Shown here one piece after another: positions 1 through 6,588 of a stretch of DNA of 6,588 bases (the stretch's first letter is position 1; every line of letters starts with the position of its first letter). The stretch is taken from positions 1-6,588 of IMG/VR virus record IMGVR_UViG_2548876940_000021; one strand, given 5' to 3'. The notes under the pieces were generated by a model. That model was given only the letters and a program-made list of their open reading frames with translations. It did not search any database and was not told the origin of the DNA. The translations under genes and the position numbers were made by a program. The stretch comes from a virus. Its lineage: Duplodnaviria > Heunggongvirae > Uroviricota > Caudoviricetes.

Positions 1-135
1 ATGATGCACTTTCAGCTCGCGGGTAGCGGCGTCATGTCCGCTTTCTACCCGCACGAATCTGAATTATCACGCCGAGTTAAACAATTAATCAGAGCAGCAA
101 AGAAACAACTGGAGGCGTTATGCGCAATGAAATAG
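1..135 (+). CDS. cIII-like small protein (FtsH/HflB protease inhibitor family), 44 aa; may extend upstream of the window
   Basis: Stop-free frame from position 1 (ATG ATG) to TAG at 133-135. The translation MMHFQLAGSGVMSAFYPHESELSRRVKQLIRAAKKQLEALCAMK resembles the lambda cIII core as I recall it (..AIAG.PVAG.PSESLLERITRKLRDGWKRLIDIL). Resemblance is from memory, not a search. Confidence 0.5.
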   Translation: MMHFQLAGSGVMSAFYPHESELSRRVKQLIRAAKKQLEALCAMK

Positions 136-272
136 CCATCAATCACCAGATGCTTCGAGCAGCACAAAACAAAGCAGTAATAGCCAGATTTATTGGTGAT
201 TCCAAAATGTGGCTTGAAGCAAATAAAGCGATGAAATCAGCTATCAACCTTCCGTGGTATCGCAGGAAATGA
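120..272 (+). CDS. Kil-like small protein (lambda Kil family, host cell-division inhibitor), 50 aa
   Basis: GGAGG at 111-115 followed by ATG at 120; overlaps the cIII-like ORF by 16 nt. The translation contains AVIARFIGDSKMWLEANKAMK, which resembles the lambda Kil motif I recall (ATFIGDEKMFREA..). Its position after cIII matches lambda gene order. Below the 60-aa cutoff of the ORF track. Confidence 0.45.
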   Translation: MRNEIAINHQMLRAAQNKAVIARFIGDSKMWLEANKAMKSAINLPWYRRK

Positions 273-376
273 GTTTTACAGATAACTGGTCAGACGAAGA
301 ATTCATTCGTCAGATGAAAGAAATGCTCAATCAGCATAAAGAACAGGAGAAAGATGATGATTCTGACTCTGAATGA
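269..376 (+). CDS. Small acidic hypothetical protein, 35 aa
   Basis: ATG at 269-271 overlaps the upstream TGA at 270-272 (ATGA coupling). Translation MSFTDNWSDEEFIRQMKEMLNQHKEQEKDDDSDSE has an acidic tail. Support is positional only. Confidence 0.3.
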   Translation: MSFTDNWSDEEFIRQMKEMLNQHKEQEKDDDSDSE

Positions 377-665
377 TAAGCGTGAAATATCGCAAATCAT
401 CGCAAGTTTTACCGATGAAGATTACGAGCGAATCAACAGTGAAGTTGATCGCCTCTGCAAACGTTGCGACCCAATAAGCGAAATGCTTCGCTCATATAAA
501 CCAGATGAACACACTAAGGACGCTATCGACTGGCTGGAAGATGATGACTGTAACTATCAGGAAAAAGCCGCTGAATGGTTCTGGGATGCAATAACCGAAA
601 GAGTTAAGGCTGAATATGCCTTCGCAATATTCAAACGCAGACATATTTATGGAGAAGCTGCATGA
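354..665 (+). CDS. Hypothetical phage early protein, 103 aa, at the position held by gam in lambda
   Basis: ORF with AGGAG at 345-349 and ATG at 354 or 357. Its stop TGA (663-665) overlaps the recT ATG (662-664). I see no recognisable similarity to lambda Gam. Confidence 0.6.
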   Translation: MMILTLNDKREISQIIASFTDEDYERINSEVDRLCKRCDPISEMLRSYKPDEHTKDAIDWLEDDDCNYQEKAAEWFWDAITERVKAEYAFAIFKRRHIYGEAA

Positions 666-1573
666 GCAATATCGTTGAATTCGTTAAACAGCAAGAGCAG
701 TTATTCTGCGGAGCATTGACTGAACAGACGGTGACATGGGCTAAGGAAAGCCAGTTTGCAATTCAGTATTTCCAGAAAAACGATTACCTGGCTAAAACGG
801 CACTGGCAAATCCAACCAGCGCACAGAACGCCATCATCAATGTTGCGGCGATCGGCATCACCTTAAACCCGGCCAGCAAACTGGCTTATCTGGTTCCGCG
901 CGACGGCATGGTGTGCCTTGATATCAGTTATATGGGATTGCTCCATATTGCAATGGAGTCTGGTGTTATCTCATGGGGTCAGGCAAAACTTGTTCATGCT
1001 AACGATACCTATGAGTCAAACGGGCTTGATAAAGCACCAACCCATAAATACAACGCCTTCGGTGATCGTGGTGATATCGTTGGCGTTTACTGCACAGTTA
1101 AGACGCCAGCAGGTGATTATCTAACGGAAGAGATGAGTCTGGCTGAAATTGAGGCTGTAAGGAAAACAAGCAAGGCGGCATTCAGCGATAAAGGACCATG
1201 GGTAAATCACTGGAATGAGATGGCGCGAAAGACGGTCGTAAAGCGTGCAAGCAAGTATTGGCCTAAGGCATCACGTCTTGATAGTGCTATTCACGTACTA
1301 AACGAAGAAGAAGGTGTGTGGACTGAACCAGTTATGCCGCACAAATCAGAGGAAGATATCCGCGAAGATGAACGGAAACGCCAGCAGGAAATAACGGATA
1401 AAGCACAACTTCTTTGTGATGAAATGGCTCATGCTGAAAACATGGATGATTTGAAGCGATATTTTGCAGAAGCATATCGCCTGACATCTGGAATGAAATT
1501 GCAGCAGAACGTACAAGCCATTTACGCAGAATGCAAAGCGAAACTGGAGGTTGCCAGTGAGCAAACTGTATGA
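662..1573 (+). CDS. recT: RecT-family single-strand annealing protein (Bet/RecT recombinase), 303 aa
   Basis: GGAG at 651-654 then ATG at 662. The segment GPWVNHWNEMARKTVVKRASKYWP matches the conserved RecT motif (Rac RecT GPWVTHWEEMAKKTAIRRLFKYLP, recalled). Size and operon position are appropriate. Confidence 0.9.
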   Translation: MSNIVEFVKQQEQLFCGALTEQTVTWAKESQFAIQYFQKNDYLAKTALANPTSAQNAIINVAAIGITLNPASKLAYLVPRDGMVCLDISYMGLLHIAMESGVISWGQAKLVHANDTYESNGLDKAPTHKYNAFGDRGDIVGVYCTVKTPAGDYLTEEMSLAEIEAVRKTSKAAFSDKGPWVNHWNEMARKTVVKRASKYWPKASRLDSAIHVLNEEEGVWTEPVMPHKSEEDIREDERKRQQEITDKAQLLCDEMAHAENMDDLKRYFAEAYRLTSGMKLQQNVQAIYAECKAKLEVASEQTV

Positions 1574-2039
1574 AATTGCCAATGAATACGCAAAATTGAT
1601 GGATTCAGATTTAGAACCAGAGATGATTGCTGACACAATAGAAGGCATGGAAGGAGAATTTACCGATAAAATAGAGCAACTTCTTTCCGTCATTAAAAAT
1701 GAATCTGGTTATGCCGAACGCCTCAAGGAAGAGGCAAAGTCACTGAATGAGCGAGCCGCAGTAATTCAAAATAAGATTGACAGCATTATGGCGTATATAG
1801 CGTCATCGCTTGAAATGGTTGGCAAGAAAAAGATTCGAGCAGGTATTCACCAGGTAACAATCCGCAAACCGTCAGAAACTGTAGAAATCATCGACTCAAG
1901 CGCCCTTCCTCCTGAATACGTTGAGTTTGAAACGACAATTAAAGCCGACAAACTGGCAATCAAACACCAACTAAAAGCAGGAATAAATATCCCCGGCGCT
2001 CAACTCAAAGTTGGGAAACCTTCACTTCTTATCAAATAA
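1557..2039 (+). CDS. Gp157-family phage protein (Sipho_Gp157-like), about 160 aa
   Basis: GGAGG at 1546-1550 then GTG at 1557 gives an N-terminus MSKLYEIANEYAKL, the characteristic MSKLYEL..Y start of Gp157-family proteins, followed by a coiled-coil-like region. It overlaps the recT 3' end. The ORF track's TTG at 1551 is in the same frame. Confidence 0.75.
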   Translation: MSKLYEIANEYAKLMDSDLEPEMIADTIEGMEGEFTDKIEQLLSVIKNESGYAERLKEEAKSLNERAAVIQNKIDSIMAYIASSLEMVGKKKIRAGIHQVTIRKPSETVEIIDSSALPPEYVEFETTIKADKLAIKHQLKAGINIPGAQLKVGKPSLLIK

Positions 2040-2050
2040 CGGTATCGACT

Positions 2051-2365
2051 ATGAAAAAGACTCCATGGGAGAAATGGGAAGTCGATTTCTTGCGCGAAGT
2101 ATCGGCGACAATGCCAGTTGAAGTTATCGCTGAAAAACTGGAAAGGACTGAAAAAGCAGTAATGGCGAAAGCAACAAGGATTGGTGCTGACATTGTTAGT
2201 CGACTTCGTGGAAGACGCTGGACAAGAGCCGAAGTATCACTTTTCGGTAAGTTCTCCGCAGAAGAAATAGCAATTGCAACCTGCCGCTCAATTTATTCAG
2301 TAAGGGCTATGCGATACAAGCTAAAAAAACTCGATGAAGAAAGAGCGGGCATACGAATAAATTAA
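2051..2365 (+). CDS. Small putative DNA-binding protein with two tandem HTH-like repeats (sigma-70 region 4 / Myb-like), 104 aa
   Basis: Two internal repeats of about 40 aa: [40 protein letters not shown] and [40 protein letters not shown]. Each carries an EIA..L..S/T...V-type recognition-helix pattern. Confidence 0.6.
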
Positions 2366-2381
2366 CAAAGAGGAATTTACC

Positions 2382-2549
2382 ATGAGAGGGCTTGCATACA
2401 ATCCCGGCATTCTTCCGGCAGAAATGATTATTCGCCAACGCGTAAAGCCAATGCCATCGAGAGAGGAATTGCTTAAGAGAAATTCTTTTCCGTCAGTAAA
2501 TCAAAACAAATATCTGAATGCGATGTGGCGCAAAGGAGGCAAGCAGTGA
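2382..2549 (+). CDS. Small hypothetical protein, 55 aa
   Basis: AGAGGA at 2369-2374 then ATG at 2382. Its stop TGA (2547-2549) overlaps the GTG start of the next gene (GTGA). Below the ORF-track cutoff. Confidence 0.45.
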
Positions 2550-2845
2550 GTGTATATCTTATTGATAAACGTCGACGTGGGCAACAAATACCACCTGTAG
2601 GAATTCCGAATCACACATGGTTTTGCGTACTTGATATCGATGGTATGGATGCGTTGGTTGACACTCGTCATTACTGCGATACCGCAACAGCTACTCCGGC
2701 GAAAGCAAAGAAAATGGCTGCTCTGATAGAAAACTGGACTCCACCTGATGGTTGGTGCAATGGGAATGATCGAGATTGGCATGAAAAAATGAAGGGCTAT
2801 ATCTGCGATTTCTTACGTAAATGCAACGGCTTCAGGGTGATGTGA
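2546..2845 (+). CDS. Hypothetical Cys/His-containing phage protein, 99 aa
   Basis: AGGAGG at 2534-2539 then GTG at 2546 six nt downstream. The ORF-track start at 2525 is the same frame, but 2546 has the better ribosome-binding site. Several Cys and His residues suggest possible metal binding. Confidence 0.6.
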
Positions 2846-2846
2846 C

Positions 2847-3485
2847 ATGAACAAGATTGACTATCAGGCACTGCGTGAAGCGGCAGAAAAAGCAACGTGT
2901 GGTGTGTGGTCGCTCGAATATGGAGAGGAGAGATTTGATGCTGGTGATGCGCTAATTCATCGTGACGTTGTTGGATATCTTCCCATTTGCAGAATTGAAG
3001 GAGCGCATCCAGAAAGCGGTTTCGATGAAGATTTCCAAATAGAACAGCAGGCCAATGCTGAATTCATCGCCGCAGCCAATCCGGCTACCGTCTTGGCGCT
3101 GCTTGGCGAGCTGGAAGCAGCAAAAAAGCGCATAGCAGAACTGGAAGCCGAACCTGTAAGCCAAACTTGCAAGTTGAACGAGCCATCGGGCAACTCTCCG
3201 GTAACTCCGGATGGTTGGATAAGCTGTAGTGAGCAGATGCCTGTAATCGGCGAGCTAAATTGGAGAACTAGTTTTCCTTTACTGGTTACGTGTGAGATCG
3301 GCGTTATACCTGCTTATTACGGCTTTGTGAGCGTTAATGGTGATAGGCATTATGGCTTTATGGAGAGTCTTAAATACGGAGACGATAACGGCAACCATCC
3401 TCAAACTAATGAATATGGTCTGATTAGCAATGTCACACACTGGATGCCTCTACCAGAACCGCCTCAGGAGGTTAACCGTGGCTAA
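2847..3485 (+). CDS. Ead/Ea22-like family protein with C-terminal DUF551-like domain, 212 aa
   Basis: N-terminus MNKIDYQALREAAEKAT..ANAEFIAAANPATVLALLGELEAAKKRIAELEA is typical of the Ead/Ea22-like N-region. The C-terminus ends ..VTHWMPLPEPPQ, the hallmark end of DUF551 proteins in enterobacterial prophages. Confidence 0.8.
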   Translation: MNKIDYQALREAAEKATCGVWSLEYGEERFDAGDALIHRDVVGYLPICRIEGAHPESGFDEDFQIEQQANAEFIAAANPATVLALLGELEAAKKRIAELEAEPVSQTCKLNEPSGNSPVTPDGWISCSEQMPVIGELNWRTSFPLLVTCEIGVIPAYYGFVSVNGDRHYGFMESLKYGDDNGNHPQTNEYGLISNVTHWMPLPEPPQEVNRG

Positions 3486-4488: not shown

Positions 4489-4545
4489 CCCACCTCACAC
4501 TCGATGAGGCCTGTTCATTGCTCAATGATATCCAGACCTACCATC

Positions 4546-4569
4546 GCCGCATCAATGCGGCTTTTTCTT
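4546..4569 (+). terminator. Rho-independent terminator-like hairpin plus T-tract
   Basis: GCCGC (4546-4550), loop ATCAAT, GCGGC (4557-4561), then TTTTTCTT (4562-4569). It lies 58 nt after the 114-aa ORF stop. Confidence 0.55.
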
Positions 4570-4611
4570 GCCTGATTTGCAGGTTCGATTCCCTATTCGG
4601 AGATAGCACTC

Positions 4612-4812
4612 ATGCAACACGAACTACAACCTGATTCACTGGTTGATTTGAAATTCATCATGGCCGATACTGGCTTCGGTAAAACCTTCATCTATGACCG
4701 GATTAAGTCCGGCGACCTGCCAAAAGCCAAAGTTATCCACGGGCGAGCAAGATGGTTATATCGTGACCATTGTGAATTCAAAAATAAGCTCTTAAGCCGC
4801 GCCAATGGGTAA
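4612..4812 (+). CDS. AlpA-family / excisionase-like HTH regulatory protein (Xis candidate), 66 aa
   Basis: GGAG at 4599-4602 then ATG at 4612. The translation LVDLKFIMADTGFGKTFIYDRIKSGDLPKAKVIHGRARWLYRDHCEFKNKLL follows the AlpA/Xis HTH pattern (..tG.s..tiY.li..G.fP.p.k.g.r..W...ev..w). It is the last gene of the + strand operon. Confidence 0.75.
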   Translation: MQHELQPDSLVDLKFIMADTGFGKTFIYDRIKSGDLPKAKVIHGRARWLYRDHCEFKNKLLSRANG

Positions 4813-4828
4813 AATAGCGGGTAAAATA
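4807..4828 (+). repeat. Tandem direct repeat GGGTAAAATA x2 (period 12) spanning the AlpA-like stop codon
   Basis: Read directly: GGGTAAAATA at 4807-4816 and again at 4819-4828, separated by GC. This is where recombinase arm-type or regulator binding sites might be expected. Confidence 0.6.
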
Positions 4829-4861
4829 TTTCTCACATCTAAAAAACTCCATTCCAATCAA

Positions 4862-4895
4862 TCCCCTGCCGCTTCAAGTAGATGTCTGCAGGGGA
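4862..4895. repeat. Perfect 8-bp inverted repeat TCCCCTGC / GCAGGGGA with an 18-nt spacer
   Basis: Read directly: 4862-4869 and 4888-4895 are reverse complements. No T-tract follows, so it looks more like a protein-binding or recombination site than a terminator. Confidence 0.55.
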
Positions 4896-5288
4896 CACCA
4901 GATACCCTTCAAACGAAATCTACCTTCACCCCGTAAAAGATAGGTTTGGCAGCACACTTGCCTTATATCTACTCATTTTTACTGCAACAGGTTGAAATCT
5001 CAGCACTGTCAGAAAGCGCTGATGACTAAACAGCCCTGGGCCGGGCGATGTAACCATCACACAGAATCCTGATAGCGAAATATGGCGTGACTCGATACTT
5101 CACTCCGCAATGCATTCCTTGATGAATTCGCAGGACCGTGATACACGGGACAGGTCGCTGAATGACGACAATGTCCTGGAAATCAGCGAACCGCGCATCT
5201 GAAGTACATTTGAGCGACTGTACCAGAACATGAATGAGGCGTTTGGATTAGGTGATTATTAGCAGGGCTAAGCACTTTAGTATTATTA

Positions 5289-5332
5289 TTTTCCGGTTGA
5301 GGGATAGGGAGATATCGACAACAACCGGAAAA
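5289..5332. repeat. Perfect 11-bp inverted repeat TTTTCCGGTTG / CAACCGGAAAA with a 22-nt spacer, 9 nt beyond the MFS gene stop; possible terminator or junction element
   Basis: Read directly: 5289-5299 and 5322-5332 are reverse complements. It sits between convergent transcription units, and neither strand has a clean U-tract after it. Confidence 0.45.
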
Positions 5333-5340
5333 GTTTACGT

Positions 5341-6588
5341 CTATATTGCTGAAGGTACAGGCGTTTCCATAACTATTTGCTCGCGTTTTTTACTCAGGAA
5401 GAAAATGCCAAATAGCAACATCAGGCAGACAATACCCGAAATTGCGAAGAAAACTGTCTGGTAGCCTGCGTGGTCAAAGAGTATCCCAGTCGGCGTTGAA
5501 AGCAGCACAATCCCAAGCGAACTGGCAATTTGAAAACCAATCAGAAAGATCGTCGACGACAGGCGCTTATCAAAATTTGCCACGCTGTATTTGAAGACGG
5601 ATATGACACAAAGTGGAACCTCAATAGCATGTAACAGCTTCACTAATGAAATAATCCAGGGGTTAACGAACAGCGCGCAGGAAAGGATACGCAACGCCAT
5701 AATCACAACACCGATAAGTAATGCATTTTTTGGCCCTACCCGATTCACAAAGAAAGGAATAATCGCCATGCATAGCGCTTCGAGTACCACCTGGAATGAG
5801 TTGAGATAACCATACAGGCGCGTTCCTACATCGTGTGATTCGAATAAACCTGCATAAAAGACAGGAAAAAGTTGTTGATCAAAAATGTTATAGAAAGACC
5901 ACGTCCCCACAATAAATATGACGAAAACCCAGAAGTTTCGATCCTTGAAAACTGCGATAAAATCCTCTTTTTTTACCCCTCCCGCATCCGCCGCTACGCA
6001 CTGGTGATCCTTATCTTTAAAACACATGTTGATCATCATAAATACAGCGCCAAATAGCGAGACCAACCAGAAGTTGATATGGGGACTGATACTAAAAAAT
6101 ATGCCGGCAAAGAACGCGCCAATAGCATAGCCAAAAGATCCCCAGGCGCGCGCTGTTCCATATTCGAAATGAAAATTTCGCGCCATTTTTTCGGTGAAGC
6201 TGTCAAGCAAACCGCATCCCGCCAGATACCCCAGGCCAAAAAAGAGCGCCCCCAGAATTAGACCTACAGAAAAATTGCTTTGCAGTAACGGTTCATAAAC
6301 GTAAATCATAAACGGTCCGGTCAAGACCAGGATGAAACTCATACACCAGATGAGCGGTTTCTTCAGACCGAGTTTATCCTGAACGATGCCGTAGAACATC
6401 ATAAATAGAATGCTGGTAAACTGGTTGACCGAATAAAGTGTACCTAATTCCGTCCCTGTCAACCCTAGATGTCCTTTCAGCCAAATAGCGTATAACGACC
6501 ACCACAGCGACCAGGAAATAAAAAAGAGAAATGAGTAACTGGATGCAAAACGATAGTACGCATTTCTGAATGGAATATTCAGTGCCAT
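5341..6588 (-). CDS. MFS transporter, LacY-like oligosaccharide:H+ symporter family, 415 aa
   Basis: Long minus-strand ORF whose ATG is the last three bases of the window. The translation is hydrophobic throughout with about 12 predicted membrane spans. Motifs match LacY as recalled: GIVQDKLGLKKPLIW against LacY GLLSDKLGLRKYLLW, and FNIFDQQ...GTRLYGY...NRVGPKNALL against LacY YDVFDQQ...GTRVFGY...NRIGGKNALL. Confidence 0.85.
   Translation of the reverse strand: MALNIPFRNAYYRFASSYSFLFFISWSLWWSLYAIWLKGHLGLTGTELGTLYSVNQFTSILFMMFYGIVQDKLGLKKPLIWCMSFILVLTGPFMIYVYEPLLQSNFSVGLILGALFFGLGYLAGCGLLDSFTEKMARNFHFEYGTARAWGSFGYAIGAFFAGIFFSISPHINFWLVSLFGAVFMMINMCFKDKDHQCVAADAGGVKKEDFIAVFKDRNFWVFVIFIVGTWSFYNIFDQQLFPVFYAGLFESHDVGTRLYGYLNSFQVVLEALCMAIIPFFVNRVGPKNALLIGVVIMALRILSCALFVNPWIISLVKLLHAIEVPLCVISVFKYSVANFDKRLSSTIFLIGFQIASSLGIVLLSTPTGILFDHAGYQTVFFAISGIVCLMLLFGIFFLSKKREQIVMETPVPSAI

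Follow-up and report, generated by a model that had tools for sequence, protein, structure and literature searches.

A torI gene with no integrase beside it, next to cscB: very probably the attR of a KplE1/HK620/Sf6-type module at the argW hotspot of Escherichia coli

Why should an excisionase gene at the edge of a prophage have no integrase gene beside it? The DNA analysed here, a stretch of 6,588 nucleotides referred to below as the window, raises this question in its right-hand part, where the last phage gene is followed by a gap and then by a convergent chromosomal transporter gene. The first-pass annotation read the arrangement as a decayed or atypical prophage end, and proposed either that the integrase had been lost by deletion, leaving a grounded prophage that would need a helper for excision, or that the excisionase-like protein is a stand-alone regulator, with the integrase at the opposite end of the element. 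On the evidence below, the end of the window is very probably the attR of a KplE1/HK620/Sf6-type argW module, with intS at the far, attL end. The architecture at the torI–cscB junction is ordinary and already published; it is the csc variant of the argW hotspot.

The last phage gene of the window and its neighbours

The window corresponds to positions 157–6744 of the draft contig AIAU01000308.1 (GCA_000446445.2), which starts inside the prophage, 156 nt ahead of the window. An identical torI–cscB junction is found in the sister contig JANWGQ010000001.1, which also stops inside the prophage and carries intact immunity and replication genes upstream. Assembly seems to have broken at repeated phage DNA. 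Phage early genes run through the window on the + strand, and the final member of the series is a 66-aa open reading frame (ORF) at 4612–4812. The genes and signals around it are as follows.

1–135, + strand: cIII-like gene (ORF list, Pfam)
662–1573, + strand: RecT gene (ORF list, Pfam)
1551–2039, + strand: Gp157 gene (ORF list, Pfam)
2847–3485, + strand: Ead/Ea22+DUF551 gene (ORF list, Pfam)
4546–4569, + strand: terminator-like hairpin GCCGCATCAATGCGGC with a T-run, between a 114-aa phage gene and torI (stem 4546–4561, tail TTTTTCTTGC)
4612–4812, + strand: torI, recombination directionality factor (RDF, excisionase) and TorR inhibitor, 66 aa (PDB 1Z4H, RefSeq, PHROG 66)
5289–5332, − strand: inverted repeat TTTTCCGGTTG / CAACCGGAAAA, 11 nt and perfect, with a 22-nt loop, directly past the cscB stop
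5341–6588, − strand: cscB, sucrose/H+ symporter of the LacY family, 415 aa, first gene of the chromosomal csc locus (LacY_symp 2.6e-193, TIGR00882)

The 66-aa protein is identical at 66/66 residues to the 'Tor inhibition protein' of PDB 1Z4H, and RefSeq lists it under the name 'response regulator inhibitor TorI', with E. coli genomes that carry it numbering in the hundreds. Previous work showed that TorI is the RDF (excisionase) of KplE1/CPS-53, a cryptic prophage of K-12, and that HkaC of HK620 and gp18 of Sf6 match it at 100% identity (PMC3509656). In our tblastn searches the TorI of the window was likewise 100% identical to the RDF proteins of HK620, Sf6 and Kapi1, and the TorI loci recovered in a profile search of viral contigs were all 100% identical. 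The protein matches PHROG 66, 'excisionase and transcriptional regulator', at E=2.7e-8. In Pfam, there was no Phage_AlpA (PF05930) match at E<=0.01, and the only match was to HTH_17, at 16.9 bits against a cut-off of 27; NCBIfam gave no match for the protein. The initial description of the protein as AlpA-like thus finds nothing in Pfam apart from that sub-threshold HTH_17 score.

The stretch 4489–4580, in which the hairpin lies, is common to HK97, HK022 and mEp235, and a terminator is annotated there in HK97 and HK022. The statement that the operon ends with the Xis/AlpA-like gene consequently holds only given transcriptional read-through of the stem at 4546–4561. The same stretch is a mosaic boundary, with the likeness to HK97, HK022 and mEp235 found there and homology to HK620 and Sf6 running from 4557. 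In the Sf6 record, a 'boundary sequence' (bsq2) is annotated across the promoter and the RDF gene.

On the chromosomal side, cscB is accompanied by cscK, cscA, cscR, a dsdX fragment and dsdA, and genome annotation names it 'cscB: sucrose MFS transporter'. It is known that the csc sucrose locus stands in place of dsdCX beside argW in many E. coli (PMC4366372). The inverted repeat at 5289–5332 is a possible cscB terminator; the terminator scan made no call at this position.

The interval between torI and cscB

The interval from 4813 to 5340 is 528 bp long and contains, as the first reading of the sequence had it for a gap of about 530 bp between the Xis-like gene and the convergent MFS gene, no integrase ORF. 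The longest start-to-stop ORFs are of 43–44 aa, and the longest stop-free stretch is of 73 aa. Nor are there pieces of such a gene. A tblastn search of 4500–5400 with the cognate IntS gave a best match of 22 aa (18 bits, E=0.36), and a Pfam search of the ten longest stop-free segments at E<=10 returned no integrase, resolvase or recombinase family, the one weak match being to a DUF4942 fragment. Neither an adjacent integrase nor integrase-derived fragments, the two findings that were to have overturned the first-pass reading, came to light in the IntS and Pfam searches. What the interval and its surroundings do contain is set out here.

4557–4900, + strand: leader, torI, P arm and core, together the conserved right half of the recombination module, with 96.5–98.5% DNA identity to HK620, Sf6, Kapi1 and other phages
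4789–4900, + strand: the portion of attR that comes from the phage, bounded by the published attR-IHF2 primer site and the last base of the core (primer match, alignment)
4805–4936, + strand: 43-aa ORF, homologue of HK620 hkaB / Sf6 gene 17 (phrog_18701, residues 1–32 of a 46-position profile)
4807–4828, + strand: two direct GGGTAAAATA repeats, overlapping the torI stop codon (repeat search; HK620 attP annotation)
4813–4885: phage P arm with two GGGTAAAAT arm-type repeats (comparison with phages and K-12)
4886–4900, + strand: attR core CTGCAGGGGACACCA, a duplicate of the last 15 nt of the tRNA-Arg(CCU) gene argW (exact-word comparison with argW)
4901–5340, no strand assigned: native chromosomal argW–cscB spacer, 440 bp, not prophage DNA (empty-site match)
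5071–5198, + strand: N-terminal fragment of a DUF4942 gene, a pseudogene remnant in the native spacer (PF13708, E=1.7e-4, 21.8 bits, cut-off 25)

The core, which equals argW nt 61–75, lies 73 nt past the torI stop, the position at which the attP core is annotated in HK620 and Sf6. The junction was read from a six-way alignment of the window, K-12 KplE1, the attP regions of HK620 and Sf6, and two csc-type prophages. From about 4562 the six sequences run in agreement as far as 4900, and with the base after that they part: the three csc-type sequences go on into GATACCC..., K-12 into the dsdC side, and both free phages into TTTATCAGTTCG..., the P' arm towards int, which is also found after argW in attL. 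The crossover is within the 15-nt core at 4886–4900. The length of the core copy is set by the host flank, being 15 nt in the csc type, where the next base is G, and 16 nt in K-12, where it is T. The published KplE1 core in K-12 is CTGCAGGGGACACCAT (PMC2951348), and that of Kapi1 in strain MP1 was reported as 17 bp (PMC8787464); the core copy at attR in K-12 is annotated as pawZ. tRNA and Rfam scans of the junction gave no match, the tRNA pieces being too short for both tools.

Beyond the core the DNA is that of an unoccupied site. A chimeric empty-site query, in which yfdC–argW was joined to 4901–5400 of the window, matched 655/655 nt, at 100% identity, in many genomes, and was covered to at least 80% in 1468 genomes. 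In the annotation of strain 94-3024, whose site is unoccupied, the order is yfdC, tRNA-Arg, 440 bp, cscB. Alignment with an uninterrupted copy of the MFS-gene neighbourhood, which the first-pass annotation had proposed as a way to find the insertion point, thus fixes that point at the core, everything from 4901 onward being empty-site sequence.

On the phage side of the core, the published attR-IHF2 primer CTCTTAAGCCGCGCCAATGG (PMC3509656) matches 4789–4808, and from there to 4900 the window differs from the K-12 attR by 2 substitutions in 112 nt, with the arm repeats and core identical. One of the substitutions (ACTCC for ACACC, near 4848) is absent from the five other aligned sequences. The word GGGTAAAAT occurs twice (4807–4815 and 4819–4827) against an expectation of 0.05, and 0/200 shuffles reached two copies. 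The doubled GGGTAAAATA is invariant in the six modules aligned, and in the HK620 record (locus L004, 1850–1872) the matching stretch is annotated as an attP repeat_region. Copies of GGGTAAAA are also present in attL beside intS, where earlier work mapped the IntS arm-type sites (P' sites) and found a conserved TAAA in common (PMC2951348). By these likenesses the GGGTAAAATA repeats at 4807–4828 are probably IntS arm-type (P) sites. The idea that the repeats were remnants of attachment or arm sites was right as to their being related to attachment or arm sites; as to their being remnants it was not, for the attR repeats and core look intact in the six-way alignment. The IHF consensus WATCAANNNNTTR had no exact match in the window, and no IHF site is assigned.

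Two short reading frames in this region remain to be accounted for. The 43-aa ORF overlaps the torI stop, and its family match covers only residues 1–32 (4805–4900, the phage-derived part), ending exactly at the core; in the HK620 and Sf6 records, hkaB and gene 17 overlap the attP core. A match that stops at the core is expected when integration cuts an ORF that spans attP. The DUF4942 fragment, whose equivalent at window 5109–5198 is annotated by PGAP as a partial DUF4942 pseudogene in strain TW14425, is unrelated to the prophage because it lies in native spacer present at empty sites. An older island at the argW hotspot probably left it behind.

The place of intS and the alternatives

HK620 and Sf6 carry the RDF gene (hkaC in HK620, gene 18 in Sf6) and int on one strand; after the RDF gene the attP core comes at about 74 nt, and int follows about 160 nt past the core. 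The RDF–gap–int order is kept in diverged Klebsiella, Erwinia and Salmonella phages whose RDFs are 39–88% identical. With the attP core between the RDF gene and int, crossover puts the two genes at opposite ends of the prophage. This has been described for Kapi1, in which attP lies between int and xis so that one finishes at each prophage end (PMC8787464), and the KplE1 module has been noted for an 'unusual organization' in which intS is autoregulated and its promoter overlaps attL (PMC2951348).

Integrated relatives show the expected layout. In E. coli CEA224S, argW is followed 161 nt later by intS, which translates at full length, and torI and cscB stand about 48 kb further on. In strain 503440, whose P22-like prophage is the closer relative of the window, the argW–intS and torI–cscB ends are about 44 kb apart; in DETEC-S565 the two junctions are about 47 kb apart. 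The K-12 layout is argW–intS ... torI–pawZ–dsdC. The half of the earlier proposal that placed the integrase at the other end of the element is therefore borne out as the architecture of the module, by the gene order of HK620 and Sf6, by these four strains and by the Kapi1 report (PMC8787464). The other half, a decayed or atypical end from which the integrase was deleted, has no support: the attR repeats and core are intact, and past the core the DNA is native chromosome.

Among 5426 complete genomes, argW–attL–intS was found in 1889, torI–attR in 1405 (at megablast level) and the torI–cscB junction in 370. The first two are separate counts, not paired by genome, and the co-occurrence of torI and intS was read genome by genome in a few cases; the difference indicates some 480 genomes with an intS-type element and a different, diverged or lost right end. 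The csc-variant site thus carries a torI-type prophage in those 370 complete E. coli genomes and is empty in 1468/5426.

The proposed course of events, drawn from sequence and from what is known of KplE1, would be the following. In the free phage, one strand carries torI (the RDF gene), the P arm, the core, the P' arm and intS in that order, and integration by crossover within the core splits the torI–intS unit. intS would remain with attL directly after argW, tens of kilobases off (about 44–48 kb in the two relatives read end to end), and torI becomes the last prophage gene, 73 nt ahead of the attR core, the remaining 440 bp to cscB being ordinary chromosome. On induction, antiterminated transcription of the leftward operon may be expected to pass through the hairpin at 4546–4561 into torI, and IntS would presumably be expressed from its own promoter at attL. 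TorI would then bind sites in attL and, with IntS and IHF, direct attL x attR recombination, which would restore argW–spacer–cscB as at the empty sites. In KplE1, TorI binds five attL sites and drives attL x attR excision with IntS and IHF, and the intS promoter is repressed by both IntS and TorI (PMC2951348, PMC3509656). We infer that the source strain has intS and that its element is still able to excise.

A grounded prophage would differ from this only at the argW end, where intS would have been deleted or inactivated while torI and attR were kept, making a helper integrase necessary. The left end of the prophage is indeed outside the source contig, IS elements are present inside the strain 503440 prophage, and decay at the argW locus does happen, KplE1 of K-12 being a 10-kb remnant (PMC2951348). 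Yet that decayed remnant keeps intS and still excises (PMC2951348). Moreover, an annotated intS stands beside argW in all of the relatives examined (CEA224S, 503440, DETEC-S565 and K-12), argW–intS genomes outnumber torI–attR genomes in the counts given above, and the immunity and replication genes on the sister contig are intact. We consider loss of intS unlikely.

If instead the prophage had carried a λ-like int–xis pair at one end, an integrase would once have stood between torI and cscB and have since decayed or been deleted, and the sole point that speaks for this is that the 528-bp gap has no ORF. Against it, empty sites carry 440 of the 528 bp as native chromosome, the other 88 bp are conserved P arm and core as in free-phage attP, the interval has no similarity to IntS or to other recombinases, and no prophage examined (CEA224S, K-12, 503440) has an int on that side of torI. 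The empty-site match refutes this reading, 4813–4885 contains nothing derived from an integrase, and we give it next to no credence. It is also very improbable that TorI is a stand-alone regulator, the alternative raised in the first-pass annotation. KplE1 depends on this protein as its essential RDF, and HK620 and Sf6, which are active phages, have RDFs 100% identical to it (PMC3509656); in the window torI is in its canonical position, with arm sites and core intact. In sum, an attR with intS at the distant attL remains much the best explanation, and an excisionase without a neighbouring integrase, beside a tRNA-derived core, is the expected signature of the xis–attP–int class and not of prophage decay. 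To this class belong KplE1, HK620, Sf6, Kapi1 and relatives in Klebsiella, Erwinia, Salmonella and others; the window adds, for the csc variant of the argW hotspot, an attR junction fixed to the base.

A T-loop-like element ahead of torI, and related systems

The one item at this locus that has some research value is a conserved element in the leader of the RDF gene, which resembles a tRNA T-loop. Two features of the window bear on it.

4567–4605, + strand: equivalent of the HK620 'phage integration' promoter, with a putative cII box TTGCCTGATTTGC (HK620 depositors' annotation; features at L004 1611–1649 and 1612–1624, the L004 coordinate being the window coordinate minus 2956)
4577–4592, + strand: TTGCAGGTTCGATTCC, 16 nt identical to the part of the argW T-arm that stands immediately ahead of the att core in the tRNA; its end is 19 nt short of the torI ATG

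At all of the loci checked, TTGCAGGTTCGATTCC was confined to argW and the region upstream of torI, and it is invariant in the six modules. The argW identity goes no further than the 16-mer on either side (shuffle fractions 0.43 and 0.56), and for this reason we reject the idea that a complete fossil att site lies ahead of torI.

More widely, at least 12 diverged lineages keep a T-loop-like element, GGTTCGATTCC, ahead of the RDF gene, 16–19 nt before its start codon; they come from Escherichia, Enterobacter, Citrobacter, Serratia, Pantoea, Edwardsiella, and Erwinia and Salmonella phages. Its conserved core forms are GGTTCGATT(C/T)C and (C/T)AGGTTCGATT(C/T)C, followed by about 6 nt and then by a GGAG Shine-Dalgarno sequence. 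Copies lie at 1657–1684 of locus L012, 1664–1675 of L013, 1670–1681 of L014 and about 1466–1482 of L099–L109, and Midgardsormr38 has two copies in tandem. Some lineages lack the element, e.g., Chronis and Dryocola. The flanks of the element are unalignable, and the putative RDF sites, the arm-type sites (GGGTAAAA vs GGGCATAA) and the core half-sites vary by lineage, the latter being, for example, GGCGTA-TGCAGGG-AACGCCA in Edwardsiella vs GATGTC-TGCAGGG-GACACCA in E. coli.

All of the TorI-like modules recovered target an argW-type tRNA-Arg (core TGCAGGG...). In Pantoea stewartii ATCC 8199 (L108, 1777–2100), an ORF starting MALNELSPKKVENSKPKETDYKLTDGGSLYLLVKKNG..., which we take to be the N-terminus of a P4-type integrase, begins about 190 nt past the attR-like core TGCAGGGGGCAA; this tRNA site may therefore hold two integrative elements in tandem. 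In Proteus hauseri (L112, 2995–3067), the TorI-like gene is followed about 1.3 kb downstream by a tRNA-Arg(CCT) gene on the other strand, an orientation unlike that in E. coli.

What might the element do? It overlaps the promoter annotated upstream of hkaC in HK620, and it contains GTTCG, which is among the motifs of the mapped TorI sites in attL (PMC2951348). Tentatively, the element could be a working cis-regulatory site and not a relic, an operator at which the integrase or the RDF acts on expression of the RDF gene, although we hold this as a possibility and would put it below an even chance. The idea arises because this sequence is, in argW, the B side of attB that the integrase recognises, because GTTCG is present in the TorI attL sites, and because the element is kept in the at least 12 lineages despite unalignable flanks and changed arm-type, RDF-type and core half-sites. 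If the idea is right, the element would tie torI expression to the recombination proteins, as a counterpart to the control that IntS and TorI exert on the intS promoter at attL, and a gap at the torI promoter, which is called uncharacterised in the literature, would be filled. A role at the level of RNA was also considered; RNAalifold gave the RDF leader a consensus of -2.86 kcal/mol with a covariation term of -0.07, so that neither a conserved RNA structure nor an RNA-level role of the element is supported. No description of the element was found in the KplE1 and Kapi1 literature (PMC2951348, PMC3509656, PMC8787464) or by full-text search.

Among known systems, KplE1 (CPS-53) of K-12 is like the window in its identical TorI, its P-arm repeats, its core 73 nt past torI and in having torI as the last prophage gene; the intS of KplE1 is the first gene, beside argW. 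The two differ in host flank, which is dsdC in K-12 and cscB in the window, and in the core copy, 16 vs 15 nt. In addition, the prophage of the window has a full early region (cIII, kil, RecT, Gp157 and others), whereas KplE1 is a 10-kb remnant. The likeness of the window to the attP regions of the P22-like (Lederbergvirus) phages HK620, Sf6 and Kapi1 extends over the promoter region and the RDF gene, the hkaB-like ORF, the arm repeats and the core. In HK620 and Sf6, however, the attP core runs into the P' arm and int (TTTATCAGTTCG...), whereas the core of the window runs into the chromosome (GATACCC...), which is the signature of an attR.

AlpA and the Phage_AlpA (PF05930) regulators of P4-like elements are, like TorI, small HTH-type proteins that go with a P4-family (DUF4102-type) integrase; TorI falls in PHROG 66, 'excisionase and transcriptional regulator', and distant TorI homologues of Pseudomonas phages are annotated as AlpA family. 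TorI is unlike the Phage_AlpA regulators in its Pfam behaviour, having no Phage_AlpA match and reaching HTH_17 only below threshold.

The λ int–xis module shares with the KplE1 type a heterobivalent tyrosine integrase, a small winged-helix RDF, arm and core sites, and IHF (PMC2951348). In λ, int and xis are on one side of attP and are adjacent in the prophage, an arrangement not found in the window by ORF list or by tblastn with IntS; in the KplE1 type, by contrast, attP lies between the two genes, and they part on integration.
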